Shown: piece by piece, positions 11,565-31,003 of the stretch | How the letters are laid out: each line of letters opens with the position of its first letter | Position numbering within the stretch: position 1 is the first letter of the stretch | Assembly: GCA_963767925.1 (NCBI GenBank) | Contig: CAVYGB010000008.1 | Span: forward strand, 2,144,001-2,208,000 | DNA from: an uncultured delta proteobacterium | Lineage (GTDB): Bacteria; Myxococcota_A; Polyangia; Fen-1088 | Reading direction: 5' to 3' | DNA: 64,000 bases | Program-made: the position numbers and the translations under genes | Notes under the pieces: generated by a model | Database searches by the model: none | Told to the model about the DNA's origin: nothing | The model's input: only the letters and a program-made list of their open reading frames with translations

Positions 11565-11577
11565 GGGGAAGCGATCC

Positions 11578-13233
11578 TCAGGGGCAGAACCAGATCCCGT
11601 AGTCCTCGCCGCGGCAGGTGAAGGTGCTGGTGGGGTCGTCGTAGGCGTAGGAATAGGCGGTCGGGCAGGCCGACTTGAACGCGCGCGAGAACAGCGACGG
11701 CCCGCAGGTCTCGGGGGTGGCGTTGGCCCCCTTGCAGCAGAGCGCGTCGGTGCCGAACCGCTCGCAAGCGCTCAGGCAGCCAACCGTGCGGCCACCCTGG
11801 ACCACGCGCAGCTCGGGCGGGCAGGTCGCGTTCAGATCCGAGACGCAGGTGGGCGCCAGGCAGTCGTAGGCCCCACCCTGACTGCGCTGGAAGCTGCCCG
11901 GCAGGGGCGCCATCGCTATCGGCAGGTTGTAGCCGTCGACCAGGCTGATGTCGTAGAAGTCGGGCCCGGTTCCCGGGGCCGCCCAGGTGATCTCGGCGAG
12001 CGTGGCCGGCGTCTTGCCGCCGACCGGACCGCAGCCGAGGCGGCCGGCGCAATCGCCGGTCGCACACTGGCCGGTGGCCCCGTTGAAGCTGCAGCCGGTG
12101 CGACCCCAGAAGCGGCCGGACCAGAGCCCGCCCGGGACGCGGACGGTGCGGATCTGTCCGGCGTCGAGCTGGAAGCCACCGCCATCGGGGACCGCCATCT
12201 GCGACTGGATGGCCACCCAGACGGTCTCCTGGCACCGATTGATGAAGACCACCTGGCGCTGGTCGTCCCGCCGCCCCATCGGCGCGGGCGGGGGATCGGT
12301 CCCCTCGCTGTCCCAGACGATGCCGTCGACGTAGAAGGTCACCGGACGGCCCGTCTCCTTGTAGGTCCAGGCGAAGCCGCCGATCAGGGTGCCACCGGTG
12401 TCGCCCCCCGCGAGGTTCATCGAGATCTGCCGCCACTCGGGGGTGAGGATCTCGGTGTGCTCGGGCAACACGATGCTGTCGCGGTCGGTGCCGGCCCGGA
12501 AGCTCACCCGCGCCCCGCTCCCGCCGGAGGCGGCGTGGAAGGTGACCCGCCGGGCCCCCGGGGCCACCGGCAGCCCGGGCTCGAGGCCCCAGTTGGGATC
12601 GCCGGCCTGGGCGGGCGGCATCGCCTCGGGGTGAGACCTGCGCAGGGTCGGCAACAGGTAGATCCCGACGAAGGCGCCCAGCGCGGGCGGCGCGAACCCG
12701 GGAGGCGGCGTGTAGGTGAACTGCAGGCAGGCGCCGCGGGCCCCCGCCGGGCGGGCGGCGCACGGGCCGGTCGTGCTGACGGCCTCCTCGATGACCATCG
12801 AGCCCGCCTGGAAGTGGCGGGAGATCGTCCCGTCGCCGAACCATCCCCGGTTGGTGAAGTGATCGGTGACGACCAGGGGCAAGGGGATGGGCGCACCGGG
12901 GGCCGGCGGCAGCGCGCTCGGCCCGTCCGCGGCGCCCGCGTCGCCGGGCACCGGGCTGCCTGCGCCGGAGCCGCCGCTCCCGGGCTGACCGGATCCGCCA
13001 CCCGTCGCGAGCGGACCACCGGTCCCGGCGGCGGGGCCGGGGCTTCCGCCCGCGCCAGCAAGTCCGCTGCCCGCGCCGCCGCTGCCGCCCGCGCCGGGAG
13101 CAGGCGGGTCGGCCGGGCGGTTCGGTGCACAGGCCAGGGCCGTGCCCAGCAGCGAGACGATCAGCGGCAGCCGGCCGCGCGCGAGGAGGAGGCGGGAAGA
13201 GCCCGCGGTCAACGGAGCCGAGGTCATGCCCAT
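11578..13233 (-). CDS. Lipoprotein with a CBM-like domain fused to a thaumatin-like (PR-5/GH152-type) domain
   Basis: Lipobox ALAC and a Gly/Ala/Pro linker. Domain shared with two other lipoproteins of the locus. C-terminal FINRCQETVW...SGRFWGRTGC...CATGDC...PATLAEIT...DFYDISLVDGYNLP...FKSACPTAYSYAYDDPTSTFTC...FCP. Confidence 0.92.
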   Translation of the reverse strand: MGMTSAPLTAGSSRLLLARGRLPLIVSLLGTALACAPNRPADPPAPGAGGSGGAGSGLAGAGGSPGPAAGTGGPLATGGGSGQPGSGGSGAGSPVPGDAGAADGPSALPPAPGAPIPLPLVVTDHFTNRGWFGDGTISRHFQAGSMVIEEAVSTTGPCAARPAGARGACLQFTYTPPPGFAPPALGAFVGIYLLPTLRRSHPEAMPPAQAGDPNWGLEPGLPVAPGARRVTFHAASGGSGARVSFRAGTDRDSIVLPEHTEILTPEWRQISMNLAGGDTGGTLIGGFAWTYKETGRPVTFYVDGIVWDSEGTDPPPAPMGRRDDQRQVVFINRCQETVWVAIQSQMAVPDGGGFQLDAGQIRTVRVPGGLWSGRFWGRTGCSFNGATGQCATGDCAGRLGCGPVGGKTPATLAEITWAAPGTGPDFYDISLVDGYNLPIAMAPLPGSFQRSQGGAYDCLAPTCVSDLNATCPPELRVVQGGRTVGCLSACERFGTDALCCKGANATPETCGPSLFSRAFKSACPTAYSYAYDDPTSTFTCRGEDYGIWFCP

Positions 13234-13272
13234 GTAGAGGAGACCTCCCGGGCCGAACTTCCCGCGCGCCGG

Positions 13273-14967
13273 TCAGTCCGGTGTGGCCAGGCAGCGTCCG
13301 GACTGGCAGGTCGCGCCGGGGCCACACGACTGCGAGCTGCACGGCACCAGCGCGCTCCAGGTGGCCAGCAGGTTCTTCTGTCTGATGTCCTGGAAGGGCA
13401 GCCAGATCGGAGGGGTGGAGGGATCCGGATTGACGGGCAGCCGGCTCAGATCGATGGCGGTCATCCAGAGCTGCTGAAACCCGCCCTCGGCCGCGCCGGC
13501 GTTGCGCCGGAGCAGCCCGTAGTCCATCAGCGAGTGGAAGGTGACGAACAGGAGCTGGCAATCCTGCTGGCCGGTGGGGGCAAAGCGGGGAAAATTCGTG
13601 CCCGCCCCCACCGGGGAGGCGCGCCCCAGGTCGAGGATCGCGCCGCCCTCCCGCCGGACCAGGCGCAGGCGGGTGTTCCGGTTCCGGTAGCTCTCGCCAC
13701 CGACCGGCGAAGAGACGAATACGATCCACCGTCCGTCGGGCGACCAGGAAGGATGGGCGTGCACCTGCAGGGGCTCGTCCACGACGACCTCGGGCGCGCC
13801 GAACCTCCCCTGCGCGTACGGCATCACCACCAGGTGGCCGTCGAAGGCCGAATATTGCTTCGCCGGCTGGATGCCGCCGCGCGCGCGGGTGGCGACGATC
13901 TCCGCGCCGCCGGGGGACCACTGGGGAAAATCGATGCGCCCCTGCGTCTCGTCGATGCCGGCCTCCCAAAGGCGCGTGCCGGCGGCGTCGTAGAGCGCGA
14001 GGTCGCCGCGGACGCCATCGCGAGCCAGGATGCGGGTGCCGTCCGGGCTCACCGCGGGGGCCACCGCGTCGGCCCGATCGGGGGACGGCGGCGGCGGCGG
14101 ATTCACCGTAGGATGGTCGAGATCGCCGGTGCGGGAGACGGTGAGGTTGCCCGCGTAGGTGGCGGCGAACGCCAGGGTGGTGCCGTCGCGGCTGACCGAG
14201 TGGCAGCCGCCGCAGCCGGAGGTGTTGCGGGCCGTCGCGGGCGCCACCATGGCCTCCGCCCGGGCCGCTCCGAAGACGTGGCGGTGGATGCCGGCGCTGA
14301 TCGGCTCGGTCCCGAGATAGTAGAGCCCCCCCTCGATGGCAGCGGGCGAAAACCGGATCGAGATCGGGTCGGAGGTGGCCACCCCCGCGGCGGGATCGTG
14401 GGCGGCGACCCGGAGCCGGACCTCCTTGCCCGCGTTGCGCTGAGCGACGTAGCGCCAGACCGGCGCCGGCACCGCAAAGCTGGCGTCGAGCTCCTGGGCC
14501 ATGGTCGCCCCCGCCGGCTCGGCGTACGGCACGTACAGCTCGATCGGCACCTCACCGGGATCGACCGGCGCGATCTCGATCCGGAAGGTGCCCTGACCCG
14601 GGCTGCCGCGCCGCCACTGCAAGGTGATGTGCGAGAGGTTCCGCGGGTGGACCGAGTCGGCGGGCGGGTAGACGATGGCCGGACGCCGCAGCGGATCGGG
14701 ATCGACGGTGGCCCCCTCGAACAGCGCGGGCTCCGCCGGGGCCACGCTCAGGCAGCGATCGCGGTTCCCGCAGGTCCAGGCCGGCGCCGGGACCACCTGG
14801 GGCGGCGTGGTGGCGGGGCAGCCCGCGGCCGCCGCTGGCCCGGGCGTGTCCGGGGAGGCGCCCGCGTCGGCGCGGGGCGGAACGGTCGAGATGGATCCGT
14901 CGCCCAGCCGCCCGATGGGCTCGCTCCGGCGCGCACAGGCCACCGCCCCCAGCAGCGCCAGCCCCAC
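13273..14967 (-). CDS. TolB-like (PD40-repeat beta-propeller) lipoprotein
   Basis: Lipobox AVAC. Motifs IVYPPADSVHPRNL, CGGCHSVSRDG, PAVSPDG, FPQWSPGG, HPSWSPDGRWIVF, QLWMTAIDL, DPSTPPIWLPFQD. Confidence 0.8.
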   Translation of the reverse strand: MGLALLGAVACARRSEPIGRLGDGSISTVPPRADAGASPDTPGPAAAAGCPATTPPQVVPAPAWTCGNRDRCLSVAPAEPALFEGATVDPDPLRRPAIVYPPADSVHPRNLSHITLQWRRGSPGQGTFRIEIAPVDPGEVPIELYVPYAEPAGATMAQELDASFAVPAPVWRYVAQRNAGKEVRLRVAAHDPAAGVATSDPISIRFSPAAIEGGLYYLGTEPISAGIHRHVFGAARAEAMVAPATARNTSGCGGCHSVSRDGTTLAFAATYAGNLTVSRTGDLDHPTVNPPPPPSPDRADAVAPAVSPDGTRILARDGVRGDLALYDAAGTRLWEAGIDETQGRIDFPQWSPGGAEIVATRARGGIQPAKQYSAFDGHLVVMPYAQGRFGAPEVVVDEPLQVHAHPSWSPDGRWIVFVSSPVGGESYRNRNTRLRLVRREGGAILDLGRASPVGAGTNFPRFAPTGQQDCQLLFVTFHSLMDYGLLRRNAGAAEGGFQQLWMTAIDLSRLPVNPDPSTPPIWLPFQDIRQKNLLATWSALVPCSSQSCGPGATCQSGRCLATPD

Positions 14968-14990
14968 CGAGAAAAAGCGCCGGTCCGGCG

Positions 14991-16400
14991 TCAGGGCCTC
15001 CTCGGGCTGGCGGGCGCGCGCAGGCGCTGCTGCGCCTCGACCGCGTGGCGGCCCAGGGGGAAGCGGCCCAGGTAGGCCTTCATCGCGGCCGCCTGACTAT
15101 CTCCCTGTCGGTCCAGGCAGTCGGCCCGGTAAAACAGGGCGTCGTCGGCGTCGGCGCTGATGGGCGGGCCCTGCAGCGCCAGATCGTAGAAGCCGAGGGC
15201 CGCCGGGCAGTCCCCGGCATGGCGCGACAGATCACCGGCCACCCGGGCGATCTCGACCCGCCGCTCGCTGTCGGTGTGGCGCTGGAGGAAGGCCCGGGCC
15301 GCCTGCAAGGCCAGGCCCGCGTCGTCGAGCCCGGTGAGGGCCTCGATCCGCCACAGATCCGCCTCCGCCCGCAGGAGGCCCTCGGGATACCGCTCGCTGT
15401 AGCGCTGCCAGCTCCGGGCGGCGCGCCCCAGATCACCCAGCTCGCGGTGCTCGATCTCGGCGATACTGAACAGCGCCAGCTCCGCCGCCGGCCCACCCGC
15501 CTCGACCATCTTCTGGTAGCGGGCGATGGCCCTGACCGGATCGGCCGGACGGTCCAGGCTCACCCGAGCGAGGGCGCGGGCCGCGGCGGGATGGGCCGGC
15601 CGGGCCTGCGCCAGCTTGCGGAGGGCGGGCCGGGATGTCGGCCGCACCGCCCGGCGGGGTGGCGGGGGGCGCACGGCCGGTGGCCCGGCGGCCGGCTCGC
15701 TCGACCAGCTCGCCCCGGCAGGCAGCCGCTGCACGAGCCGATCCGAGGCGACCTCGTGGACCTCGACGGTGCCGCTCGCGACCGCCACCGAGACGCCCGC
15801 CTCCTCGACCGCCACGTCGAACACGGTCCCCAGCACCACCACCCGGAAGGCCCCCGCCCGGACGCTGAAGCGCTGGCCGGGGGGCTGATGGGGGACCGAG
15901 AAGCGCACCCGTCCCACCTTCACCTCGGGCGGCGACCCGTCCTCCCCTGGCACCAGCGCCGTGCGCGGCAGGAGCTCGGCGTCCACCCCCCGGGCCAGGC
16001 GGTGGCGCACCCGCTCGCCGGGCCCGGTGCTCAGGGCGGCGGGCGGCGCGGGCAAGGGGATCACCTCGGGCGCCAGCCGCGGGCCGGCCGCCGCCGGCTG
16101 GGCGGCGGGCGCCGTGGCCAGGGATCGGTCGCGGAGCAGGTTCGCGCTGCCAAGGACGGTCACGGTGGCGGCGAGCGCCACGCCGGCGCCGACGAGCAGG
16201 GGCGTCAGCCAGCCGCCGCCCCAGCGCGGGCTGGCCAGCCTGCCCGAGCGATCCCACCAGGGCGCCTGGACCCGGGGCCAGACCCGCTGCCGGGCGAAGG
16301 CCTCGTCGCCCGGTCCCGGCGACGCGTCGTCCAGGGCCTGGCGGAGCGCGCGGGCCCCCGGATCGGCGGTCTCTTCCAGCCAGCGCTTCGCCCCGCTCAT
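14991..16400 (-). CDS. FecR-domain anti-sigma/transducer with a C-terminal TPR region
   Basis: Start MSGAKRW overlaps the sigma stop (ATGA). One TM helix. FecR-type GRVRFSV...FSVRAGAFRVVVLGTVFDV...VAVASGTVEV. TPR helices YSERYPEGLLRAEA and YLGRFPLGRHA. Confidence 0.85.
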   Translation of the reverse strand: MSGAKRWLEETADPGARALRQALDDASPGPGDEAFARQRVWPRVQAPWWDRSGRLASPRWGGGWLTPLLVGAGVALAATVTVLGSANLLRDRSLATAPAAQPAAAGPRLAPEVIPLPAPPAALSTGPGERVRHRLARGVDAELLPRTALVPGEDGSPPEVKVGRVRFSVPHQPPGQRFSVRAGAFRVVVLGTVFDVAVEEAGVSVAVASGTVEVHEVASDRLVQRLPAGASWSSEPAAGPPAVRPPPPRRAVRPTSRPALRKLAQARPAHPAAARALARVSLDRPADPVRAIARYQKMVEAGGPAAELALFSIAEIEHRELGDLGRAARSWQRYSERYPEGLLRAEADLWRIEALTGLDDAGLALQAARAFLQRHTDSERRVEIARVAGDLSRHAGDCPAALGFYDLALQGPPISADADDALFYRADCLDRQGDSQAAAMKAYLGRFPLGRHAVEAQQRLRAPASPRRP

Positions 16401-17071
16401 CCCTGCCCCTCCTTGGCCATCTCCTCGAGCTGGGTCCGCGCCCGGTGGATGCGGGTCCAGACCGTGTTGACCGCGCAGCCACAGACCTCGGCGATCTCCT
16501 GGACCGGGCGCCCCTCGATCTCGAACATCACCAGCGCCAGCCGGCGCTCCGGCGGCAGCCGGCCGAGGAGCTGGGCCATGTACTGGCGGCGGGCCGCCTC
16601 GTTCTCCCCCCAGTCGCGCGGCAAGGTCGGGGTCAGCTCCCGCTTCCACAGGTCGAGCAGGGCGCGCTTGAGCCGCCTCCGCTTCGCGTAGCGGATCGCC
16701 TCCCGGGTCGACAGGCGGTGGATCCAGGTGGCCAGGCGGGCCTCGCCCCGGAAGGACCCGAGGTGGCGATACACGATGATGAAGATCTCCTGGCAGAGAT
16801 CGTCGGCCTCCCCGTCGACGATGCCGAGCGCATGGACCAGCCGGGCCACCTTGCCGAAGTGACGGTCGTAGAGGGTGCGCCAGGCGGCCGGGTCACGCAG
16901 CAGACAGCGGCGCACGAGCTCGTGCTCGTCCGCCACGGTCAGCTCGCTCGAAGGGGAGATAGGCCTCGGCATGCGGGTGGCGGTGTCGGCGCCCGCGGGG
17001 TCGAGCGAAGCTCCGTCCTGCCGTTCCGGGGGCCGTGACGGCCGCGAGCTGCGCAACATGGGCAAGTTCAC
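16397..17071 (-). CDS. ECF-type sigma-70 factor
   Basis: Region 2 ADDLCQEIFIIVYRHLGSFRGEARLATWIHR. Region 4 LPPERRLALVMFEIEGRPVQEIAEVCGCAVNTVWTRIHRAR. The true start may be a downstream Met. Confidence 0.93.
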   Translation of the reverse strand: MNLPMLRSSRPSRPPERQDGASLDPAGADTATRMPRPISPSSELTVADEHELVRRCLLRDPAAWRTLYDRHFGKVARLVHALGIVDGEADDLCQEIFIIVYRHLGSFRGEARLATWIHRLSTREAIRYAKRRRLKRALLDLWKRELTPTLPRDWGENEAARRQYMAQLLGRLPPERRLALVMFEIEGRPVQEIAEVCGCAVNTVWTRIHRARTQLEEMAKEGQG

Positions 17072-17099
17072 CGCCGCCCCTATGGAGGGGTGAGGCCGC

Positions 17100-18248
17100 T
17101 CAATTCTTCCACAGGGTCAGCCCGGTCTCGATGACGACCCTCAGATGGGCGGTGGGGGTCCGGAAGACCGGCGTCTCCAGGCCCGCGTCAAAGTCGCGCG
17201 GGGCCAGGGAGAAGCCGCCCCAGAGGGACCCGCGCACGAACAGCCGCCGGCCCGCGGCGCGATAGGCCAGCCCGAGCGCTGCGGACGGCTCGACGCGCAC
17301 CCCCCCCTGCGCGTCGACCAAACCGCGCGCCTGGAAGGCGAGCAGATCGACGTCGAGCCCCACCGCCGGCGCGATCACGCCGCCCAGCAGCGGCAGCGGG
17401 AACCCCAGCGCGGCCCGCAGGGGAAAGGCCCGCACGCGCAGGTCGGCCGACCCGCCCGAGCCGGGCACCTCGCGCGCGGTCTCGGAGGTGACGCCGCCCG
17501 CGAGCTCGACGCCCAGCCAGCCGCGCTCGCCCTGCAGGCCGACGAGCAGCTCGGTGCGCGCGCCGCCCGCCAGCCCGATTCGCGCGCCCCCGCCGGCGCC
17601 GAGGAAGAGGGCCAACCGCGGCCGGGCAGCGGGGACCGCGGCGATCGTGGCGGCGCTGGCGGCGCTGGCGGCCGGGAGCGGGTCGCCGGAGAGGGCCAGG
17701 CGATCGACGAGGGAGGGCGTCTCGCTCCGGGTAGTCGAGGTGGCGGGCGCCGGAGCAGCAGCATCGGTCGGGGCGGCAGGGGGACCGGCCGGCGGGGTCG
17801 CTTCGGCCGCAGGAGCGGGTGCCGGCTCGTCGGGCGGCCGCACCGGCCTGGGCGAGCGGTAGCCGATCTCTCTCAGGAAGCGCACCACAACGAGGGCTGC
17901 TGCTTCCGCGATCGCCTGGCACCCCTCGGGAGACCGCGCCGGGCCATGGGAAGCGCCGGGCACGGTGAGCCGCCGCTCCAGCACGGACCCGCCGCCCACT
18001 TCGCGCAAGCGTAGCAAGCGAACCTCGGCCGTCGCGCCCCGGTCGATCTCCAGGCGATAGCGAGGGCCGGACCGCGGCCCGGCTCGGGCGCGCGTGACGC
18101 CGGGCAGCCGCGCCTCCAGCCCCGACGACACCTGGCCGGCAGCGGGGCAGCCTCCCGCGGGAGCCTCCACCGAGATCGACGCCTCCGCGCCCAGCGCCGG
18201 GCCAGGCAGCAGAACGAGGGCGATCAGGGCCCGGAGACAGCCACGCAC
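17100..18248 (-). CDS. Secreted hypothetical protein of the myxobacterial ECF-FecR cassette type, with a C-terminal beta-strand-rich region
   Basis: Start taken at GTG 18248. Signal peptide ALIALVLLPGPALG, CPAAGQV...RRLTVP...CQAIAEAAALVV, Pro/Ala linker, then amphipathic strands ending ETGLTLWKN. Confidence 0.65.
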   Translation of the reverse strand: MRGCLRALIALVLLPGPALGAEASISVEAPAGGCPAAGQVSSGLEARLPGVTRARAGPRSGPRYRLEIDRGATAEVRLLRLREVGGGSVLERRLTVPGASHGPARSPEGCQAIAEAAALVVVRFLREIGYRSPRPVRPPDEPAPAPAAEATPPAGPPAAPTDAAAPAPATSTTRSETPSLVDRLALSGDPLPAASAASAATIAAVPAARPRLALFLGAGGGARIGLAGGARTELLVGLQGERGWLGVELAGGVTSETAREVPGSGGSADLRVRAFPLRAALGFPLPLLGGVIAPAVGLDVDLLAFQARGLVDAQGGVRVEPSAALGLAYRAAGRRLFVRGSLWGGFSLAPRDFDAGLETPVFRTPTAHLRVVIETGLTLWKN

Positions 18249-18349
18249 GGCCGCCAGTATGCCGCTGCCCGGGCCTCGCCGCCTGCCCCACCGCGGCGGT
18301 CGAGGTGGGAAGAATGCCGACCCCGCCCTCCTCCTAGCTTCGGATCGTG

Positions 18350-23211: not shown

Positions 23212-23305
23212 CCGACGCCGCCGCTCGGGAAGAAACCGCTCGGTGTCGGACCCTGAACATCCGGTCGCGGGGTCGATGGTGCCGCCGCGTCGAAAGGGGA
23301 TCGTC

Positions 23306-24076
23306 ATGACCGTGTCCAGGCGTCGCTCACACACGTGCAGATTTCTTCTGGCCTTCGCGCTCGCCGCTGCCGCCTGCGGTCCGGACGCCACCACCGGAAG
23401 CGAGCCGCTAGTGGGCGGCAACACCGGCAGCTCCGGCGGCGCTGGAGGGACTGCGCCCCCGCCGACCGGCGGCGCGGGGCCCGCCCCCAGCACGGGCGGG
23501 GTGGCTTTGCCGATGTCGGTCACCGCCCAGTTCCAGAACCAGGGCTGGTTCGCCGACCCGAGCGTGGAGATGTTCTTCGCGGGCGGGATGGTCATCCGCC
23601 AGGTCGACGGCACGACCGGGCCCTGTGCCGCCCGTTTGCCCCAGGTCCGCGGCAAGTGCGTGAAGGTCACCTACACGCCTCCGGCCGGGCTGGTGCCGCC
23701 GCCGACCGGCGGCTGGGTGGGCGTCTACTTTCTCACCACGGCGAACAACGATCACCCCGAAGCCACCCCGCCCGTCCGGGTCGGAGAGGCCAACTGGGGC
23801 ATCGAGCCAGGGCTCAACATAGCCCCCGGCGCGACGAAGATCTCCTTCCTGGCCGCGGCCGATGAGGAGGGGGTGGCCGTCTCGTTCAAGGCCGGCACCG
23901 ACAAGGACACCTTCACCGTCCAGGAGCAGCGCCAGGTGCTCGGCACGGCCTGGAAGCGCCACGAGCTACCGGTCAGCGGCGTCTACGGCAGCAGCGTGAT
24001 CGGTGGCTTCGCCTGGGTCCTCGGCGACACGACCAGGCCAGCGACGTTTTACCTCGACAACATCGTATGGGAGTAG
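23306..24076 (+). CDS. Lipoprotein consisting of a single CBM-like domain (paralog of the domain in the thaumatin fusion)
   Basis: AAAGGGG RBS, lipobox AAAC, Gly/Thr/Pro linker. Domain GWFAD...GPCAAR...CVKVTYTPP...NWGIEPG...FKAGTDKD...IGGFAW...TFYLDNIVWE. Confidence 0.8.
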   Translation: MTVSRRRSHTCRFLLAFALAAAACGPDATTGSEPLVGGNTGSSGGAGGTAPPPTGGAGPAPSTGGVALPMSVTAQFQNQGWFADPSVEMFFAGGMVIRQVDGTTGPCAARLPQVRGKCVKVTYTPPAGLVPPPTGGWVGVYFLTTANNDHPEATPPVRVGEANWGIEPGLNIAPGATKISFLAAADEEGVAVSFKAGTDKDTFTVQEQRQVLGTAWKRHELPVSGVYGSSVIGGFAWVLGDTTRPATFYLDNIVWE

Positions 24077-25323
24077 CAGCCCGCCCACCCGGTCATGGCT
24101 CGACCGGCGCCCTGATCGTCGCGATCATGTCCACGGCCTGCATCTCACCGCTCGAGGGGGTCGCCCGCCGCGGGGGGGGCGCGCCGGTCGCGCCGCTGCC
24201 CGCTCAGGATGCGGCGGCCACCCCCGGCCCCCCGGCCCGCCCCGGAGACGGTGGGCCGTCGCCGGCCGACGCCCGGGTCCCCCCGCCCATCCCGGGAGGT
24301 GACGCCGGCGCCGCTCCCCCATCCCCGCCGGCAAGCCCAACGGCGGAGGGGATCGCGTCGGCGTCGGTGGTTGGCTTCGAGCTGCTGGTCCGCTGGCGCA
24401 ACCCCGACGGCAGCGTCACCCCGCCGGTCCCCTTCGACATCCGGGGCGTCTCCTGGAGCCCCGCCGACCGGGGCAGCCTCCGGCCCCTCGAGGCCGACTA
24501 CCGGCGGGCCGCCGATCGCGATCTGCCGCTCATGCGGGCGGCCAGCATCAACGTGGTCAAGACCTACGGTCCCCTCGACGCCGCCACCCTCGACGAGCTC
24601 CTGGCCCACGGCATCTTCGCCATCATCACCGTGTTCACCGCCGAGGGGAACGTCTTCGAGCCGGTGGTGCAAACGCTCCGCGATCACCCGGCCGTGCTGA
24701 TGTGGATGGTCGGCAATGAGTGGAACCTGAACCGCCTCTACCAGACCTGCACCGGGGACGCCTGCTCCGCCCGCGTCGAGGCGGTCGCGCGGCGGATCAA
24801 GCAGCTCGACCCCCGCCACCCGGTGGCCACCTCCTTCGCCCCCTCCGGAGAGCTGCCCGGCGAGGCCGACCTGCGCCGCTTGCCCAGCGTCGACGTCTGG
24901 GGCCTCAACATCTACTCGCAGCCCGGGTTCTTCAACCGCTTCAACAACTGGCGCCTGCTCGCTCAGCAGACCGGGATTCGCAAGCCCTTCTTCCTGAGCG
25001 AATACGGCGCCGACGCCTACGACAACCTGAACGGGCGGCCCGACCTGGAGGCGCAGGCCCAGGCCCTGCGCCGCCAGACCGCGGAGATCCGGATCCAGCT
25101 CAGCGCCCACAACCCCGCCTTCCCTTGCCTGGGCGGCACCCCCTTCGAATGGAACGACGAGTGGTGGAAGCGGGGCAACCCCGGGGCCCAGGACGCGGGG
25201 GGCTTCGCCAACGACGGGGTGGCCGCCGACCGCTTCGCCAACGAGGAGTGGTGGGGAATCGTCGATGTCGAGCGCAATCCGCGTCCCGCCTATCAGGTGT
25301 TGAAGGAGCTGTACGCCAAATGA
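24067..25323 (+). CDS. Clan GH-A TIM-barrel glycoside hydrolase lipoprotein (GH2-TIM/GH158-like; candidate beta-1,3-glucanase)
   Basis: Lipobox STAC. IRGVSWSP, INVVKTY, acid/base motif WMVGNEWN, DVWGLNIY, nucleophile motif FFLSEYGADAY, FEWNDEWWK, NEEWWGIVD. Confidence 0.8.
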   Translation: MGVAARPPGHGSTGALIVAIMSTACISPLEGVARRGGGAPVAPLPAQDAAATPGPPARPGDGGPSPADARVPPPIPGGDAGAAPPSPPASPTAEGIASASVVGFELLVRWRNPDGSVTPPVPFDIRGVSWSPADRGSLRPLEADYRRAADRDLPLMRAASINVVKTYGPLDAATLDELLAHGIFAIITVFTAEGNVFEPVVQTLRDHPAVLMWMVGNEWNLNRLYQTCTGDACSARVEAVARRIKQLDPRHPVATSFAPSGELPGEADLRRLPSVDVWGLNIYSQPGFFNRFNNWRLLAQQTGIRKPFFLSEYGADAYDNLNGRPDLEAQAQALRRQTAEIRIQLSAHNPAFPCLGGTPFEWNDEWWKRGNPGAQDAGGFANDGVAADRFANEEWWGIVDVERNPRPAYQVLKELYAK

Positions 25324-25946
25324 ACAGGAAAAATCGTCGTGTCCACGCCCAGCCACTCGCCGCCGGGCTCGCCCTGGCTACCTTCGGAGCGATCGGCTGC
25401 GTGTCCCCCGCCGAGCCACCCCTCGAGCCGATCGAGATCCCCTTCGCGGTGTCCGACTACTACTCGCCCGACGGCTTCTTCGGGGACGGCGAGACCCGCG
25501 GCCTCATGGACGTGACGAAGGTCTGCCCGGATCGCGTCCCCGGCGCCCGCGGCGACTGTTACACGGTCACCTACCAGCCGGGCGCCCGCCGCTTCGGCGG
25601 CGTCTACTGGCAATACCCCCACAACAACTGGGGCTACTGGCCGGGCCACCAGGTGGCCGGCGGGGCGAACCGGATCCGGTTTCGCGCCCGCGGCGCCCGG
25701 GGCGGCGAAGGGGTGACGGCCGGCGCGGGACAGACCAACACCCCCAACAGCCACAACGACAGCTTCCGTCTGGAGGAGGCCACCTTCGCCCTGACTGACC
25801 GCTGGACCGAACACGAAGTCCCCTTCCGGGGCGCGGCCTACGGCGGGACCAGCGGCGTCATCGGCGCCTTCCTCGTCACCCTCATCGCGCCCGACGACGA
25901 CAAACCCACCGTCGTCCACCTCGACGACATCCGGTGGGCGCCATGA
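25320..25946 (+). CDS. Lipoprotein consisting of a single CBM-like domain (third, more divergent copy)
   Basis: ATGA overlap, lipobox AIGC. PDGFFGDG...CPDR...GDCYTVTY...GGVYWQYPHNNWG...IRFRARGARGGE...LTDRW...IGAF...VHLDDIRW. Confidence 0.8.
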   Translation: MNRKNRRVHAQPLAAGLALATFGAIGCVSPAEPPLEPIEIPFAVSDYYSPDGFFGDGETRGLMDVTKVCPDRVPGARGDCYTVTYQPGARRFGGVYWQYPHNNWGYWPGHQVAGGANRIRFRARGARGGEGVTAGAGQTNTPNSHNDSFRLEEATFALTDRWTEHEVPFRGAAYGGTSGVIGAFLVTLIAPDDDKPTVVHLDDIRWAP

Positions 25947-27787
25947 AGGAAGCCAAGATGAGCCGGGCGAAGATGAAGCGGGTACATGAAGGGAGGAGCG
26001 CGATGAGGGCGCGGCTCCCGAGGGCGGCGATCGCGGCGGTCGCGGCCCTGGTGGCCGCCCGCCTGGCGCCGGCCCAGGCCCAGCCCCCGCCCCCCCGGGC
26101 CAACCCCTTCGCCTGCCTGGGCGAGGGCGACGCCCTCTCGCGGGGGATGACCACCGAGGAGATGCGGTCCGAGATCGACAAGCGCCTGGCCCATCCCTTC
26201 CAGCCAGAGAGCGCCGGCCCCGAGGGGCAGGTGGAGGTGGCTCGCCACCACTGCGTGACCGCCGAGCTGATGCGCCGGGTGGGTGACGTGCGGGCCCCGG
26301 ACTATTACGCCCGGGCCATCGCCAGCGACCCCGCCGAGCCGGGCATGGACCTCTGGTACGGCTACTACATGCGCAACGTGCGCGGACCCCGGCACGCCAT
26401 GGTGGAGGAGGCGGAGCTGCACCACCACGCCGCCCTCGACAAGCTGCGGGCCCTGCGCGCGCAGAACGCGGCCCTGGACTTCGACGACGTGACCGAGGCC
26501 TGGGTGCGCCGCGGCCTCATGAACCTGTACCAGGAGGACGGGCTCCCGCTGCTGCGGGCCAAGGCCTTCCCCTACGCCCGCAACGGCGCCCGCCAGATCG
26601 GCGCCTCCCTCACCGCCATCTTGCGCGCCTCGGCCGACACGAACGAGTTCGGCTCGATCGACGACAGCCGGCGCTACGCCGCCGAGGCCCAGTTCGCCGG
26701 CTCCCCCCAGCGGCTCAACCGCCCGCTCGATCCGCAGGAGCTGCGCGGGATCATCCGCACGCCCTTCCGCTACGGGCTGTTCAGCCGCCTGCGCCTGCGC
26801 CTGCCCTGGATCGGGGCCCTCGACGCCAGCTACGAATATTTTCGCGCGCCCGACAGTCAGATCGGCGCCTACACCGAGCCGAACCGGTTCACCAACGTGG
26901 CGGTGGACAGCTTCTCGGTCGGCTGGAAACGCACCCTCGATCTCCACCCGGTGTTCGACCTCCTCCTCGACGTCGCCTACCGCCGGGTCGAGCGCACCGG
27001 CGTCGTGGAGTGGTATCCCCAGCTCCGCGAGGGGGTGAACCTGCTGGAGCTGCGGCCGGCGGTGGCCCGCTTCATCGGCCCCGACAAGCTGCTGCTGGGC
27101 ATGAACTACGTGTACATGCAGATCCCCACCGTCCCGGGCGGGGCGGTCTCGGACCGGGTGCGGGCCCGGGCCATCCGGGCCTTTTACGCCGACTACGCGG
27201 TCTACCGGCAGCTCCTGCTGCCCGACCCCACCACCTGGGAGCTGAAGCGACGGGCCACCCGCGGCTTGCACTTCTACGGAGGCTACGCCATGGACGACGA
27301 GGCCTTCGGCGTGCGGGTCTCCTACCGGCGCGACAGCTACGGCGGCATCAGCCTGCGCGGGGTGGGCGCCTTCGACTTCACCTTGCAAGGGAGCGTGCTG
27401 GCCTCCGACAGCACCGAGGACCGCCGCGGCGTCGGGGGGGACATCGTGCGGGTGCTGGACCAGGCCCAGGTGATCCGTCAGGTGCGCCCCACCTTCGTCC
27501 TGCTCTACCGCCTCCTCGACGAGGAGGCGATCCCCGACCTGCCCAGGACGCCCCTGGCGGGGCTCAACCTCGTCATCCCGGTGCGGGCCGACTTCGCCTA
27601 CCGGGGTACCGACGCGTTCGACAACGTTCGCGGCGGCGCCGAGGTCTGGAGCAAGCTCGTCAGCACCGGCCTGCGCGGGACCAACTTCCTGCTGACCGCC
27701 GGCTACGAGGCGCAGCTGTTCCATCGCCTGTCCCGGGTGATCCACATGGGCCGGGTCGAGCTGCGCATGGGCTGGGGGCGCCTGTGA
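25943..27787 (+). CDS. Hypothetical protein, predicted outer-membrane beta-barrel with an N-terminal helical/TPR-like domain
   Basis: ATGA overlap at 25943; alternative start at 26003 after GGGAGGAG. Signal peptide ending PAQA. Many alternating aromatic/hydrophobic strands (FSVGWKRTLDL, LLLGMNYVYMQI, LHFYGGYAMD, FDFTLQGSVL, LLTAGYEAQLF, RVELRMGW). Confidence 0.65.
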   Translation: MKEAKMSRAKMKRVHEGRSAMRARLPRAAIAAVAALVAARLAPAQAQPPPPRANPFACLGEGDALSRGMTTEEMRSEIDKRLAHPFQPESAGPEGQVEVARHHCVTAELMRRVGDVRAPDYYARAIASDPAEPGMDLWYGYYMRNVRGPRHAMVEEAELHHHAALDKLRALRAQNAALDFDDVTEAWVRRGLMNLYQEDGLPLLRAKAFPYARNGARQIGASLTAILRASADTNEFGSIDDSRRYAAEAQFAGSPQRLNRPLDPQELRGIIRTPFRYGLFSRLRLRLPWIGALDASYEYFRAPDSQIGAYTEPNRFTNVAVDSFSVGWKRTLDLHPVFDLLLDVAYRRVERTGVVEWYPQLREGVNLLELRPAVARFIGPDKLLLGMNYVYMQIPTVPGGAVSDRVRARAIRAFYADYAVYRQLLLPDPTTWELKRRATRGLHFYGGYAMDDEAFGVRVSYRRDSYGGISLRGVGAFDFTLQGSVLASDSTEDRRGVGGDIVRVLDQAQVIRQVRPTFVLLYRLLDEEAIPDLPRTPLAGLNLVIPVRADFAYRGTDAFDNVRGGAEVWSKLVSTGLRGTNFLLTAGYEAQLFHRLSRVIHMGRVELRMGWGRL

Positions 27788-30187
27788 GTCGCGCCCAGGT
27801 GGCCGCGCTGGGCGGGGCCCTCACCCTGCTCGGTTGCGCCGGAGCGAGCAGCGAGCGGGTTCCGGCTCGCCCGGAGCCGAGCCCCGACACCGTGGCGGTG
27901 GGGGCCGGCCGCTACACCACCGCGCGGCTGGCCGGGGAGAAGCCGCCCTCCAACCAGCAGGGCCGGCCGGTCGAGCCCAAGGTCAGCCCCGCCTTCACCG
28001 CGGGCAAGGCCGTCCCGACCTCCAACGACTGGTGGTCCTCGCTGATCTGGCAGTTCGACCGGGGCGGCAAGCCCAACCCCTACTCCGAGCCGCTGTTTGC
28101 CCACCCGCTCCACCTGCAGGCGCTGCCCGAGGGCCTCGGGCTGGGCTCGGCGGGCAAGCCCCAGGTCGCCTCCCGCACCTTCTTCTTTCCCTACGTCCAA
28201 GATCTGCGGGTGGGGATCGACGGCCTGGTGGCCCCTGCCGCCCGGGTCAGCGGGTACACCGACTGGACCGTGACGGCCGAGTGGAGCGCCGGCACCCCGG
28301 CGCGGGCCCTCACCGCCACCTTTGGCCACGGCCTGCCCTTCGCTTACTTCGAGGCCACCGGCGGGCCGGCGCTGATCGAGCTGGACGAGCAGGCCGAGGT
28401 GGCCGTGTTCGCCGAGACGCCCGGATCGCTGGGCATCACCGTGGCCGGGCGGCCCTACGGCCTGTTCGTCCCCAGCGGGGCCACCTGGACCCGCGAGCCG
28501 GGTAACCGCCGCTTCCGCAGCGATCTGCGCGGACGGGCAGCCCGCGGCGTCTTCTCGGTGGCGGTGTTGCCCGACGCGGTCCCCGCGACCCTGGCCCGGT
28601 TTCGCCGGCACGCCTTCGCCTTCGTCACCGGCGCGCGGGTCTCCTGGCGCTACGACGCCGCCCGGGCCGAGCTGCGGAGCACCTTCGACGTGGCGACCGC
28701 CCCGCGGGACCCTGCGACCGAGGGTGGCGACACGCCCCTGCTGGCCCTCTACCCCCACCAGTGGAAGAACCTCGGCAGCGAGGCCGGGCCGGCCTCCTAC
28801 CCCTCGCCCCGGGGCGCGATGAAGCTGCTGGCGACCGCGAGCTTCACCACCCGCCTGCCCTTTCGGCGGGGTGCTCCCGGTTTTGCCCCGGCCGCCCGAG
28901 GGCGCCTTCGAGGCCTCCGACCTGGCGGGCCAGGTGCGCGCCGCCGCCCGGGGCGAGCTGTTTCCCAGCGGCCTCGACGGCACCCGGGGGACCTACTGGA
29001 TCGGCAAGTCGCTGCAGCGGGTCGCCCTGCTGGCCTGGCTGGCCGAGCAGGTGGGCGAGACAGCGGTGCGCGCGCGGCTCGTCTCTGCGCTGCAGGGGGT
29101 CCTCGAGGACTGGTTCGACGGCGCCGCCCCGAACCTCTTCTACTACGACCGCACCTGGGCCACGCTCATCGGCCTGCCCTCCGAGTACCGCTCGGGCTGG
29201 GAGATGAACGACCACCACTTCCACTACGGCCAGATCATCTTCGCCGCCGCCACCGTGGCCCGCTTCGATCCGGCCTGGGCGCAGCGACACCCGCTGGGGG
29301 GGCATGGTCGAGCTGCTGATCAAGGACTGCGCCAATCCCGACCGGAGCGACGACCGCTTCGCGTTCTTGCGCAACTTCGACGCCTACGCCGGGCACTCCT
29401 GGGCCAACGGCCCGGCGCTGTTCCCCGAGGGCAACAACGAGGAGTCCTCCTCGGAGGACGTCAACTTCGCCAACGGCGTCCTGCTGTGGGGGACCTTCAC
29501 CGGACAGGCCGTGTGGCGCGACCTGGGCATCTTTCTGCACACCAAGCTCGTCGCCGCCATCGAGCAATACTGGTTCGACGTCGACGGGGACAACTTCCCG
29601 CCGGACTTCTCCCGCCCGACGGTCGGCATGGTCTGGGGCAGCGGCGGCAAATACGACACCTGGTGGGACCGCAACCCCATCTACGTGCACGGGATCAACT
29701 TCCTGCCCTTCACCGGCGGGTCGCTCTACCTCGGCCGGCGGCCCGAATACGTGCGGCGCAACTACCAGGCCCTGTTCGACGCCAACCGGGGCGAGCCGCG
29801 GCTGTGGCGCGAGATCATCTGGATGTTCCAGGCGCTCGGCGATCCGAAGACCGGCCCTCGCCCAGTACGAGAAGAACCCCCACTTCGAGCCGGAGTTCGG
29901 GGTGAGCCGGGCCTACGTCTACCAGTGGCTGCACGCGCTGGCGCAGCTACGGCCAGGTCGACGCCACCGTGACCGCCGACAGCCCGACCTACGCCGTGCT
30001 CCGCCAGGGCAACACCCGCCACCACGTGGCCCTCAACCCGGGTGCCCGGGACCTGCAGGTCCGCTTCTCGGACGGCACGTTCGTGGACCTGGGCCCCCAC
30101 GAGCAGAAGGTCGTGAGCACCCCCATCGCCCCGGCCACGGCCGCCGCGACCGCCGCTCCGACGGCCGCCCCGACGGCTGGCCGATGA
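27784..30187 (+). CDS. GH81 endo-beta-1,3-glucanase lipoprotein, interrupted by four +1 frameshifts (probably sequencing errors)
   Basis: GTGA overlap, lipobox LLGC. PTSNDWWSSL, ATFGHGLPFAY, ALYPHQW, GTYWIGKSL, NDHHFHYG, RNFDAYAGHSWANG, GNNEESSSED, YVHGINFLPFTGGSLYLG. The frame changes near 28862, 29285, 29853 and 29947. Confidence 0.9.
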
Positions 30188-31003
30188 CGGCGTCGACCTC
30201 GAGCCGCTTCGCCGTCCTTCTGGCGCTGGCCCTCGGCGCCCTCGCCTGCGGAGAGGACGCCGGGGGGGCGACCACCTGGCGGCTGGTCTGGGGCGACGAG
30301 TTCGACGGCCCGGCCGGCAGCCCTCCCGATCCGGGGCGCTGGACCCGGGAGGTGGGCGGCCACGGCTGGGGCAACCAGGAGCTGCAGCACTACACCGCCC
30401 GTCGGGAGAACGTCGCCCTCGACGGCGCCGGCACCCTCGTCATCACCGCCCGCCGGGAGCCGATGGGCACGCGCGCCTTCACCTCGGCGCGCCTGTCGTC
30501 ACGGGGGAGATTCGAGCAGCGCTACGGCCGCTTCGAGGCCCGCCTGAAGCTGCCCGGCGGGCAAGGGCTTCTGGCCCGCGTTCTGGATGCTGGGCGGTGA
30601 CATCGGCGAAGTCGGCTGGCCAGCCTGCGGGGAGATCGACGTGGTCGAGTCCCGGGGCGCGCAGCCCTGGCGCGTGTCGGGGGCCCTGCACGGCCCCGGG
30701 TACTCGGGCGGCAACGCCCTGGTCGGCGCCTTCGAGAGGCCGGACAAGCTCCCCCTGTCGGACGACTTTCACGTCTACGCCGTCGAGTGGGAGGAGCGCG
30801 TGATCCGCTTCTTCGTCGACGATCAACTCTACCACGAGGTCCGCCGGACCCGCCTGCCGCCCGCCACCACCTGGCCCTACGATCAGCCCTTCTTCGTGCT
30901 GCTCAACCTGGCAGTGGGCGGCACCTTCGGCGGCCCGCCCGACGACGGCACCCCGTTTCCCCAGACCCTCGTCGCCGACTGGGTGCGGGTGCACACCCGC
31001 TGA
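30184..31003 (+). CDS. GH16 laminarinase-type beta-1,3-glucanase lipoprotein, with one +1 frameshift near 30569
   Basis: ATGA overlap, lipobox ALAC. WRLVWGDEFDG, GWGNQELQHYT, YGRFEARLKLP, [G-L]WPAFWML once corrected, catalytic EIDVVE, FHVYAVEW, PFFVLLNLAVGG. Confidence 0.92.

Follow-up and report, generated by a model that had tools for sequence, protein, structure and literature searches.

Organisation of the locus

The window analysed here, the whole stretch of 64,000 nucleotides, comes from an uncultured soil Myxococcota and holds a β-1,3-glucan locus at positions 11578-31003. The locus consists of two divergent, translationally coupled arms, with the following genes, given for each arm in the order in which they are read. 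The names cbmA and cbmB denote two lipoproteins which, with the N-terminus of the thaumatin lipoprotein, make up three proteins or domains of a common CBM-like fold, and p617 denotes a barrel protein of 617 amino acids.

Left arm (minus strand)
17100..18290 (-), hypothetical exported protein, family restricted to Myxococcota; start codon uncertain
16397..17071 (-), ECF sigma factor (Sigma70_r2, E 2.3e-11; Sigma70_r4_2, E 1e-16)
14991..16403 (-), FecR-type anti-sigma factor with C-terminal TPR (Pfam FecR 39.4 bits, cut-off 24; TPR matches weak)
13273..14967 (-), TolB-like PD40 β-propeller lipoprotein (Pfam PD40, E 2.6e-10; conserved CxxCH motif; lipobox LLGAVAC)
11578..13233 (-), thaumatin lipoprotein, N-terminal CBM4-like domain (about residues 116-308) and C-terminal thaumatin domain (residues 332-551); lipobox LLGTALAC

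Right arm (plus strand)
18350..21817 (+), GH149 β-1,3-glucan phosphorylase, predicted cytoplasmic, 1156 aa (NF058639)
21814..23211 (+), GPH-family (MFS_2) sugar:cation symporter (PF13347, E 1.3e-100)
23306..24076 (+), cbmA, CBM4-like lipoprotein (lipobox LAAAAC)
24067..25323 (+), clan GH-A lipoprotein (TIM barrel), distant GH158 relative, putative endo-β-1,3-glucanase (lipobox IMSTAC)
25320..25946 (+), cbmB, CBM4-like lipoprotein directly upstream of p617 (lipobox FGAIGC)
25943..27787 (+), p617, predicted outer-membrane protein, TPR-like helices at the N-terminus and then a 16-stranded β-barrel (AlphaFold2 model; alternative start 26003)
27784..30187 (+), GH81 endo-β-1,3-glucanase lipoprotein (PF17652 in two frames; lipobox LTLLGC)
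30184..31003 (+), GH16 laminarinase-type lipoprotein (PF00722; EIDVVE motif; lipobox LGALAC)

All the parts that the original prediction had assigned to the two arms are there at the coordinates given, and so are the ATGA/GTGA overlaps. We read six of these 4-base overlaps from the sequence, at GH149/GPH (ATGA), GH158-like/cbmB and cbmB/p617 (ATGA on both sides of cbmB), p617/GH81, GH81/GH16 and ecf/fecR (ATGA), while the cbmA and GH158-like genes overlap by 10 bases. The start of fecR is likely the ATG that overlaps the stop codon of the sigma factor gene. Lipoboxes were seen in seven of the encoded proteins when their N-termini were read.

Enzymes and transporter

The phosphorylase, previously described as 'GH149-like', proved to be a full GH149: it scored 1536.7 bits with the NCBIfam model NF058639, passing the equivalog cut-off of 1150, and matched the solved β-1,3-glucan phosphorylase PDB 6hq6 over residues 18-1152 (E 0, 1138 bits). 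No signal peptide was visible at its N-terminus. The symporter reached 402.5 bits with TIGR00792 (cut-off 231). For the clan GH-A lipoprotein the best solved matches were GH158 enzymes (PDB 9oro, E 3.3e-11; 6pal, E 3.2e-4), and the glutamates of its NE and SEYG motifs, both catalytic positions, align with the GH158 templates. A piece of GH81 matched PDB 6fop (E 2.3e-57) and also BH0236, and the best solved matches of a GH16 piece were laminarinases (PDB 3azx, E 2.4e-46). The enzymes therefore do belong to β-1,3-glucan families, as had been proposed (GH149, GH81, GH16 of the laminarinase type and a distant relative of GH158), and the locus is a real β-1,3-glucan catabolic cluster.

A family search of the window found no TonB-dependent receptor, Plug, TonB_dep_Rec or SusD match, which agrees with the predicted lack of SusC/D and of a TonB-dependent receptor in the locus. 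The same held for TonB receptor and SusD families in a scan of 121 flanking proteins from 20 related loci, one of which, the GH149 contig of genome G012, is a non-barrel locus. The genome as a whole has 27 TonB-receptor matches, all of them outside the window: the two closest to it are on its own contig, at distances of about 354 kb and 564 kb, and the only SusD match is on another contig. The lack of a TonB receptor applies to the window itself; uptake may still depend on a receptor encoded elsewhere, as the genome carries these 27 matches.

The barrel protein p617 and the CBM4-like domain

The outer-membrane component of the cluster is an undescribed, previously unnamed barrel protein, with no TonB-dependent receptor. 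Its AlphaFold2 model, built from an alignment of 49 sequences, has a pLDDT of 92.3 and a pTM of 0.87. The modelled fold appears to have its nearest counterparts in the exopolysaccharide export porins PgaA, PelB and BcsC: VIA-align gave Z 18.4 with the PgaA barrel (4y25) and Z 15.6 with PelBC (9h80), and porins of this kind lead the Foldseek ranking, with BcsC as the top match. In the protein atlas, the features of p617 pointed to the NfrA and PgaA clusters at 0.93, with a recognition value below the mark. To our knowledge, this class of TPR-barrel fold is known only in exporters (PgaA, PelB, BcsC). Sequence homology between p617 and PgaA was not detectable (hhalign probability 0.16), and none of the 49 family members matched a Pfam barrel family, including DUF560, PgaA_barrel, BCSC_C and NfrA_C.

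The N-terminal domain of the thaumatin lipoprotein can be aligned with cbmA and cbmB. The profile of the domain alignment A2, of which cbmA is a member, matches xylanase module chains of 167-176 residues (E 1.9e-4), covering only the C-terminal half of the module, and Pfam gave no CBM_4_9 match for the domain, so that its assignment as a CBM is a weak one. Of the 21 genome loci in which the flank is present, 15 have a cbmB homologue no more than 400 bases from the barrel gene, and from one subfamily to the next it is the CBM4-like domain, either alone or fused, that constantly accompanies the barrel. Its fusion partners are Peptidase_C14 (5 loci), a GH17-like protein and thaumatin; otherwise it is a lone lipoprotein. 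In fusions it forms the very C-terminal part of the protein and closes with a conserved YxDDIxW/Y-E ending.

In 5 loci, distant homologues of the barrel (27-38% identity) adjoin secreted caspase-like peptidases whose C-terminus is formed by the CBM4-like domain, with clostripain and CHAT genes, and no glucanases, nearby. This suggests that the barrel may serve the domain rather than the glucan; p617 may import glucan or may display proteins. The original view of the barrel as an import channel was not borne out, as the fold matches exopolysaccharide exporters and the distant homologues stand beside CBM-tagged peptidases. It is quite possible, if a little short of probable, that p617 lets glucan chains or oligosaccharides through as a passive conduit; a role as translocon or anchor for proteins with the CBM4-like domain is a more tentative, but still serious, candidate.

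In its full form the latter reading would have p617 place the CBM4-like-domain proteins on the cell surface, by analogy with Slam/type 11 secretion or a two-partner system, with glucan still being degraded and the oligosaccharides entering through general porins or through a TonB receptor encoded elsewhere, for which the 27 matches in the genome would offer candidates. The constancy of the domain beside the barrel whatever its fusion partner, and its sorting-domain-like position and ending, speak for such a role, and the architecture of TPR, barrel and adjacent lipoprotein presumably resembles that of Slam. However, the domain is missing from the best-conserved neighbours in the close subfamily, GH81 and GH16, the 16-strand model is nearest to a glycan-conducting protein, PgaA, and DUF560 is among the families that no member matches. 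Furthermore, CBMs are commonly C-terminal in secreted enzymes. We regard this account of the locus as somewhat unlikely.

Conservation of the module

The synteny sought in relatives was found: 13 of 23 species loci share the gene order CBM-like lipoprotein, barrel, GH81, GH16. Counted gene by gene, the barrel gene is directly followed by GH81 in 13/23 species loci, with GH16 after GH81 in 10 of these. The 13 barrel-GH81 loci are mostly from Myxococcota (Polyangia, Kofleriaceae and Polyangiaceae among the lineages), the others being one from Pseudomonadota and one from a Krumholzibacteriia MAG. The nearest relative is a Myxococcota, which supports the description of the locus as myxobacterial. 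In metagenomes, where many loci are short, GH81 adjoins the barrel gene in 10 of 74 loci, and a search of 89 genomes within the order found 18 with GH81, including all 10 with the barrel.

Membership of the GH149-GPH pair in the conserved design was not supported, since the pair is joined to the barrel-GH81 module only within this genus (G000 and G001). In the same-genus genome G001 the genes are spread over two contigs, one with GH149-GPH-cbmA and the other with GH158-like-cbmB-p617-GH81-GH16, and in G012 the pair sits among housekeeping genes. Other barrel loci exchange their inner-membrane and cytoplasmic parts and stay catabolic: a ROK regulator occurs together with an Opp-type ABC system in both L022 and L024, and a GH1 is found in L029. 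In L036 and L028 the barrel has a GH17 as a neighbour.

Frame changes in GH81 and GH16

The locus had been called complete. Its parts are all present, but as assembled here GH81 is broken in four places, each time by a net +1 frame change (near 28861, 29281-29285, 29847-29857 and 29944), which we located against the single-frame orthologue from the same genus, and GH16 by one (near 30559). Both genes are intact in all other loci examined (GH16 for example in L019). The assembly, 83.8% complete in 13 contigs, contains 888 frameshift-like junctions in 9.34 Mb, about 95 per Mb, and contigs of relatives contain 1 in 221.6 kb (4.5 per Mb), a rate about 21 times lower. These junctions are clustered, with 274 neighbour gaps not exceeding 1 kb against an expected 79, and the housekeeping gene tgt is also split, in the middle of its domain. 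Because of the difference in junction rate and the split tgt, assembly error is the likely cause of the breaks; consensus errors in a long-read assembly most likely account for all five frame changes, and GH81 and GH16 are thus probably intact in the organism.

True pseudogenes, with the capture half of the system decaying and the locus incomplete, are improbable. In favour of decay, the uncompensated single-base frame changes, five in 1.7 kb, are dense even for this assembly, none of them falls in a long homopolymer run and the remainder of the 19-kb locus is free of them. The reads examined did not extend over these five sites. Against this, junctions also cluster strongly elsewhere in the genome, and each broken piece keeps a strong coding signal, without in-frame stops and with 68-84% identity to the intact same-genus orthologue.

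Left arm

The thaumatin domain is complete (PF00314, E 3.8e-74, profile positions 1-209 of 209), and an orthologue of this lipoprotein adjoins the module in L019. Homologues of the PD40 lipoprotein, whose C[GE]GCH motif is present in 7/7 homologues examined, flank the module in L020, L023, L027, L029, L032 and L039; of these loci, L020 and L023 have the full ECF-FecR-PD40 set next to the capture genes and the other four have the PD40 lipoprotein alone. The sigma factor scored 70.5 bits with TIGR02937 (cut-off 42.9). The protein encoded at 17100..18290, a homologue of which precedes ecf-fecR-tolB in L023, had no match in Pfam or NCBIfam; in the protein atlas it reached 0.97-0.98 with unnamed Myxococcota clusters and only 0.86 with OMP_b-brl, and it possibly ends in a small outer-membrane barrel. 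As to the idea of ECF control, the regulators recur beside capture genes, but their link to the right arm is one of adjacency, and a simple scan for a GGAAC...CGT ECF promoter found nothing.

Discussion

We think it fairly probable that this cluster is a β-1,3-glucan utilisation system of uncultured Myxococcota which leads from surface capture through the GPH symporter to GH149. Judging from family membership and gene order, the glucan would be held by the three proteins with CBM4-like domains, one of them a thaumatin fusion, and cut at the outer membrane by the lipoproteins GH81, GH16 laminarinase and GH158-like; oligosaccharides would then be carried over the inner membrane by the symporter and converted to glucose-1-phosphate by GH149 in the cytoplasm. 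The divergent ECF sigma/FecR/PD40 operon, given its co-conservation, is the likely sensor and regulator. The weakest step of this pathway is the role of p617.

That the barrel and the lipoprotein glucanases instead export and trim a self-made β-glucan exopolysaccharide, as PgaA/PgaB, BcsC/BcsZ and PelB/PelA do, is very improbable: although all fold neighbours of p617 are exopolysaccharide export porins, the atlas points the same way and a processive-type GT2 is encoded near one homologue (L037), a GT2 synthase is absent from the locus genes of the window and from the GH81-type loci scanned, the first genes of the operon are those for a catabolic phosphorylase and a symporter, in related loci there are ABC importers, GH1 and ROK repressors, and kinship with PgaA escapes detection by sequence. 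Like PgaA, PelB and BcsC (PDB 4y25, 9h80, 9b8h, 6tzk), p617 is predicted to have a 16-stranded barrel preceded by TPR-like helices in the periplasm, but it lacks demonstrable sequence-level membership of these families, its genomic context is catabolic, and its locus has no synthase, c-di-GMP receptor or polymer-modifying partner.

The proposed utilisation pathway has partial counterparts elsewhere. Kuhaudomlarp et al. (2018, PMC5827456) read GH149 clusters of Proteobacteria and Bacteroidetes as serving uptake and phosphorolysis of external β-1,3-glucan, and describe a type I with an ABC transporter and LacI or AraC, a type II with a TonB-dependent receptor, GH16, GH17, MFS and a two-component system, and, as a third setting, Bacteroidetes PULs. 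What the present locus shares with these is the clustering of GH149 with a transporter for sugars and with glucanases that act outside the cell, GH16 for example; it differs from the types described there in having no TonB receptor or SusC/D, in its Myxococcota host and in its combination of GPH, GH81, GH158-like, thaumatin, CBM4-like lipoproteins, TPR-barrel and ECF/FecR. As in the SusC/SusD laminarin PULs of Bacteroidota, lipoprotein glucanases and glycan binders are encoded beside an outer-membrane barrel, and a binder gene adjoins the barrel gene. Unlike in those systems, p617 is no TonB-dependent transporter, energy coupling is not evident, and the binder, in place of SusD, is a β-sandwich-like domain of roughly 170 residues.

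Myxobacteria are also known for β-glucanases used in predation. The review accounts, as far as available to us, describe GluM, a β-1,6-glucanase reported as an outer-membrane barrel, LamC (printed IamC in a review) and AcGlu13.1-13.3 (PMC10800785, PMC10971235). These resemble the present system in being β-glucanases that include an outer-membrane barrel protein and target fungal or oomycete walls; they differ in being single secreted or outer-membrane enzymes of Myxococcaceae and Archangium, for which those accounts mention no linked phosphorylase, symporter or regulator module. For the cluster described here, the candidate substrate would be the β-1,3-glucan of fungal, oomycete or algal walls.

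A two-armed cluster for β-1,3-glucan catabolism

Two divergent arms of genes occupy positions 11578–31003 of the window, which was taken from a 9.34 Mb source assembly in 13 contigs (G000:C8:2144001-2208000). Because the G+C content of the window is 72%, genes were called by third-position G+C together with a codon log-odds scan.

Genes of the two arms, window 11578–31003.
minus strand: hypothetical exported protein
minus strand: ECF sigma factor (Sigma70_r2 and r4_2; TIGR02937, 70.5 bits against a cut-off of 42.9)
minus strand: FecR anti-sigma factor with TPR
13273–14967, minus strand: PD40 (TolB-like) lipoprotein
minus strand: thaumatin lipoprotein, 551 aa, with a complete thaumatin domain making up its last 220 residues
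plus strand: GH149 phosphorylase, 1156 aa (NF058639 and PDB 6hq6)
plus strand: GPH symporter, in the arm with GH149
plus strand, in this order: cbmA, clan GH-A lipoprotein, cbmB, p617, GH81, GH16

The gene description given in the original prediction is correct, since the family matches, lipoboxes in seven proteins (N-termini read by eye) and seven overlapping gene junctions (six four-base ATGA/GTGA overlaps and one of ten bases, read from the sequence) were all found in the two arms. The phosphorylase, which had been called GH149-like, proved to be a full GH149 member: it scores 1536.7 bits against NF058639 (curated cut-off 1150), with profile positions 7–1133 of 1134 matched, and is homologous over nearly its full length to the solved enzyme Pro_7066 (6hq6_A, E 0, 1138 bits, residues 18–1152 against 42–1169). 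It is predicted to be a β-1,3-glucan phosphorylase, which would release glucose-1-phosphate from β-1,3-gluco-oligosaccharides. The GH81 gene matches PF17652 over profile positions 28–136 and 141–325 of 349, split over two reading frames, and a piece of it matches solved structures (6fop, E 2.3e-57; BH0236, E 1.2e-46) with the catalytic C-terminal domain present. The GH16 protein, which carries one frame change, belongs to the laminarinase subfamily by its fold (PF00722), by its ExDxxE catalytic motif, which reads EIDVVE, and by its nearest solved relatives, which are β-1,3-glucanases (for the piece searched, 3azx, a laminarinase, E 2.4e-46, then 2vy0 and 2hyk).

The best solved matches of the GH-A lipoprotein are GH158 enzymes (9oro, E 3.3e-11 over 116 of 418 residues; 6pal, E 3.2e-4), and the glutamates of its NE and SEYG motifs line up with NE and TEFG/TEWG in these templates; because the coverage is partial, its membership of GH158 is unproven, and we refer to it as a putative GH158 relative. 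The thaumatin domain is a family member over its whole length (PF00314 positions 1–209 of 209, E 3.8e-74, 249 bits against a cut-off of 27.4). β-1,3-glucan is the substrate or ligand of GH158 and thaumatin-like proteins. A limited full-text search returned nothing relevant on thaumatin in Myxococcota, which does not imply absence from print. Judging from its families and gene order, we regard the locus as a real β-1,3-glucan catabolic cluster. The original prediction had called it complete, and all the parts it named are indeed present, but the GH81 and GH16 frames are broken in the assembly, so that the locus is complete only if the five frame changes are assembly errors, as they probably are.

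Interrupted frames of GH81 and GH16

In the source genome GH81 lies in five frame segments and GH16 in two. GH81 has no single uninterrupted frame there, and a DNA alignment to its intact, single-frame orthologue in the same-genus genome G001 reveals four net +1 changes, at about window 28861, 29281–29285, 29847–29857 and 29944; GH16 changes frame near 30559, and is intact in L019 (a module locus of the relative G012) and in other loci. One read run, sharing 11% of sampled words, gave 13 of 20 contigs at least 99% alike, and its listed pieces cover window 27935–28141, 28211–28361 and 29385–29634, with the five frame-change sites outside them; two further read runs gave short, partly fitting pieces only. 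Because the reads did not reach these sites, errors were assessed across the whole assembly. A codon-score scan found 888 frameshift-like junctions in 9.34 Mb (95 per Mb), as against one in 221.6 kb of contigs from 15 relatives (4.5 per Mb), and the junctions of the source genome are clustered, with 274 neighbour gaps of at most 1 kb where 79 were expected. The housekeeping gene tgt, for queuine tRNA-ribosyltransferase (window 55906–57025, minus strand) is split in mid-domain near 56580, with PF01702 positions 2–143 in one frame and 144–354 in another, and the assembly is 83.8% complete with only 13 contigs. It is possible that GH81 and GH16 are true recent pseudogenes; nevertheless, given the rate and clustering of junctions, the split tgt and the level of completeness, their breaks are most likely consensus errors of the assembly. 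As a frameshift-like junction occurs about every 10 kb, apparent pseudogenes in this assembly should not be trusted at face value. Further such junctions lie in the window near 7938 and 45345.

Receptors and regulation

The original prediction also held that the locus has no SusC/D or TonB-dependent receptor, and neither the 27 genome matches to the TonB-receptor barrel family PF00593 nor the single match to PF07980 falls inside the window; the nearest PF00593 matches on the same contig are approximately 354 kb and 564 kb away. At E ≤1e-5, TonB-receptor and SusD families were also absent from 121 flanking proteins of 20 related loci, a set that includes the GH149 contig of G012, which is not a barrel locus. 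The only SusD-like match of the genome is in L041 (G000:C10:1622001-1642000, genes at about 10489–14846), where its neighbours are a Met-zincin (DUF4953) and a SusC-like TonB receptor built of CarboxypepD_reg, Plug and barrel domains; the 20 kb inspected there hold no glycoside hydrolase. SusC/D-like pairs are unusual for Myxococcota. Whereas a SusC/SusD-type polysaccharide utilisation locus has adjacent genes for a SusC-like transporter and a SusD-like lipoprotein, the present locus has neither.

The ECF-FecR-PD40 arm is co-conserved with the module formed by the CBM-like lipoprotein, barrel, GH81 and GH16: the full set is found in two related loci (L020, with tolB-like, fecR, ecf and a second tolB-like gene, and L023, with hypothetical, ecf, fecR and tolB-like genes), and the PD40 lipoprotein alone flanks four others (L027, L029, L032 and L039). 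FecI/FecR/FecA-type signalling uses a cognate STN-bearing TonB receptor, whereas here sigma factor and FecR occur with no TonB receptor in the window, and the PD40 lipoprotein holds the conserved third place beside ecf-fecR. Classical FecA-type signalling is unlikely at this locus because FecR has 12 matches in the genome and STN just two, both far from the window. A c-type haem or metal site in the PD40 lipoprotein, a putative sensor, is suggested by a CxxCH motif near residue 252 (C[GE]GCH[AS][VI]S), which is conserved in all seven homologues, drawn from six loci. Since the arms are divergent neighbours and the regulatory genes are co-conserved, we infer that the right arm may be under ECF control. 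The promoter GGAAC-N14-19-[CG]GT was absent from 10 upstream regions (window, L020 and L023); since this motif is naive, its absence does not count against ECF control.

Among the other genes of the window (47378–49853 and 34815–36503) are a PP2C phosphatase, whose open frame overruns its coding signal far into the gene of the adjoining zinc-ribbon Ser/Thr kinase, and, elsewhere, another Ser/Thr kinase. Eukaryote-like kinase/phosphatase signalling is typical of Myxococcota.

Recurrence of the CBM-like, barrel, GH81 and GH16 genes

The record closest to the locus is titled "MAG: Myxococcota bacterium", and G001 has the same gene order, spread over two contigs. A synteny search, proposed with the original prediction, showed that the module recurs in related loci: GH81 directly follows the barrel gene in 13 of the 23 species loci holding the latter (L018-L020, L022-L024, L026, L027, L029, L031-L033 and L039), GH16 follows GH81 in 10 of these, and in 15 of 21 loci with the flank present the barrel has a CBM-like gene no more than 400 bases away. 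Barrel loci come from records titled Polyangia, Kofleriaceae, Polyangiaceae, Myxococcales, Deltaproteobacteria, Pseudomonadota and Krumholzibacteriia. Among 89 genomes of the order, 18 are GH81-positive and all 10 barrel-positive genomes fall among those 18, counts that are given without a statistic because the genomes are kin and not independent. In one genus barrel and GH81 are not direct neighbours but divergent genes with about 4 kb between them. Across the phylum, with three candidates scored per genome, the barrel was found in at least two of 401 sampled genomes, the source genome counted. In metagenomes GH81 adjoins the barrel in 10 of 74 loci, many of the others being too short to judge, and GH16 lies within a few kb of the barrel in four other loci. 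GH17 adjoins the barrel in L036 and is near it in L028.

The inner parts of the cluster are swapped elsewhere, for a ROK regulator and an Opp-type ABC system in L022 and L024 and for GH1 in L029. GH149 and GPH are joined to the module only in the source genome and G001; GH149 occurs in three of 41 relatives, the source genome included, and the copy in G012 sits among glycolysis genes. A second, diverged CBM-like and barrel pair (39% identity to p617) was seen in L019 (G012:C64, 8314–10796), 2 kb downstream of the first module and followed by a PA14 protein and a thaumatin fusion.

Family and fold of the p617 barrel

The 617-residue protein p617 has no sequence match in Pfam, NCBIfam or PDB (the last searched up to E 10). 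A word-based search gave 77 homologues, every named one of which is annotated as hypothetical, and a full profile search among 1.84 billion representatives gave 320 clusters (50% identity) at E ≤1e-3, without spilling into large families. A first fold from the single sequence was unusable (pLDDT 40.5) and was replaced by an AlphaFold2 model built on a 49-sequence alignment (pLDDT 92.3, pTM 0.87), in which helical repeats (residues 36–175) are followed by 16 long strands (residues 200–589). The top VIA-align match of this model is the PgaA barrel (Z 18.4, rmsd 3.3 over 265 of 290 residues), with a Z about 3 units above generic 16-strand porins, followed by PelBC (Z 15.6), which spans both helices and barrel (model residues 82–592); BcsC, PelBC and PgaA also rank high in Foldseek, and protein-atlas features point to the NfrA and PgaA clusters with a recognition value under its mark.

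The model shares the architecture of the PgaA/PelB/BcsC porins, which have an N-terminal TPR and a 16-stranded barrel. In sequence, however, none of the 49 family members matches PgaA_barrel, BCSC_C or NfrA_C up to E 1, and an hhalign comparison with E. coli PgaA, used as a single-sequence template, gave a probability of 0.16; p617 thus shows no membership of these porin families at sequence level. The operons of those porins contain a glycosyltransferase synthase, whereas the genes of the present locus and the scanned GH81-type loci are without GT2, which was seen near a barrel homologue only in the genome locus L037. The Slam (type 11 secretion) systems place a TPR and DUF560 barrel beside lipoprotein cargo, and adjacency to lipoproteins is present here as well; the Slam barrel has 14 strands and the p617 model 16, DUF560 has no Pfam match in any of the 49 members, and no solved Slam structure is among the fold-search lists. 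Among 14 weaker or longer family members Pfam found nothing relevant except a sub-threshold GH17 stretch in one 873-residue protein.

The CBM-like partner of the barrel

The lipoproteins cbmA and cbmB each consist of one CBM-like domain of approximately 170 residues, ending in FYLDDIxW, which they share with the thaumatin protein, where it lies in the N-terminal half. Built from 27 copies, a profile of this domain matches five xylanase-labelled chains of 167–176 residues (E 1.9e-4 to 7e-3), along their C-terminal half alone; the chains include 3jxs, 1k42 and 2y64, and we take them to be the CBM4-2 module of a Rhodothermus xylanase. The Pfam family CBM_4_9 matches none of the 27 copies, CBM30 matches two of them weakly, and a sequence search of cbmA against solved structures gave nothing meaningful. 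Because the profile match is of half length and Pfam gives just weak CBM30, "CBM4-like" is a lead rather than a membership, and the domain is a putative binder.

Distant homologues of the barrel (27–38% identity) adjoin a secreted Peptidase_C14 protein with the CBM-like domain at its extreme C-terminus (metagenome loci L052, L054, L057 and L060 and genome locus L035), and clostripain and CHAT-TPR genes are close by. Since these barrels sit beside C14-CBM-like proteins and not beside glucanases, the invariant partner of the barrel is the CBM-like domain. The pair fits equally well a binder with its channel or a cargo with its translocon; modelling p617 and the cbmB domain as a complex gave a score of 0.00, which counts neither way. 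In six loci (L052, L054, L057, L060, L067 and L035) we also observed a recurring cassette of clostripain (C11), TPR-barrel homologue and C14 with a CBM4-like end, often with a CHAT-TPR gene alongside.

Discussion

Most of what is understood about outer-membrane glycan capture comes from SusC/D systems, which are TonB-dependent, and from a small number of specific porins, and we know of no described route by which predatory or saprophytic Myxococcota take up the wall glucan of fungi or oomycetes. The passages on GH149 clusters in Kuhaudomlarp et al. 2018 (PMC5827456) distinguish three settings, namely type I, with an ABC transporter and LacI or AraC, type II, with a TonB receptor, GH16, GH17 and MFS, and Bacteroidetes PULs. 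The cluster described here differs from all three as another type, and with it GH149 phosphorylases are known from a fourth genomic setting. Review passages on myxobacterial predation (PMC10800785, PMC10971235) describe secreted β-1,3- and β-1,6-glucanases, including the outer-membrane barrel GluM, and within those passages there is no operon like this one. Among the papers listed by our full-text literature searches, none describes this module.

The locus and its recurrence in several lineages provide a concrete candidate module, consisting of a CBM4-like lipoprotein, a TPR-barrel, GH81 and GH16, and the most interesting part of the cluster is the unnamed TPR-barrel and CBM-like pair. We tentatively propose, while regarding it as somewhat doubtful, that the p617 family and its obligate CBM4-like partner may form an undescribed TonB-independent outer-membrane system of soil bacteria, in which the glucan-linked subfamily would thread β-1,3-glucan inward, as chains or large oligosaccharides, to the lipoprotein glucanases, and in other subfamilies the pair would serve CBM-tagged peptidases. 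If this is true, the glucan-linked p617 subfamily would represent the exopolysaccharide-secretin fold working in reverse, in place of SusC/D.
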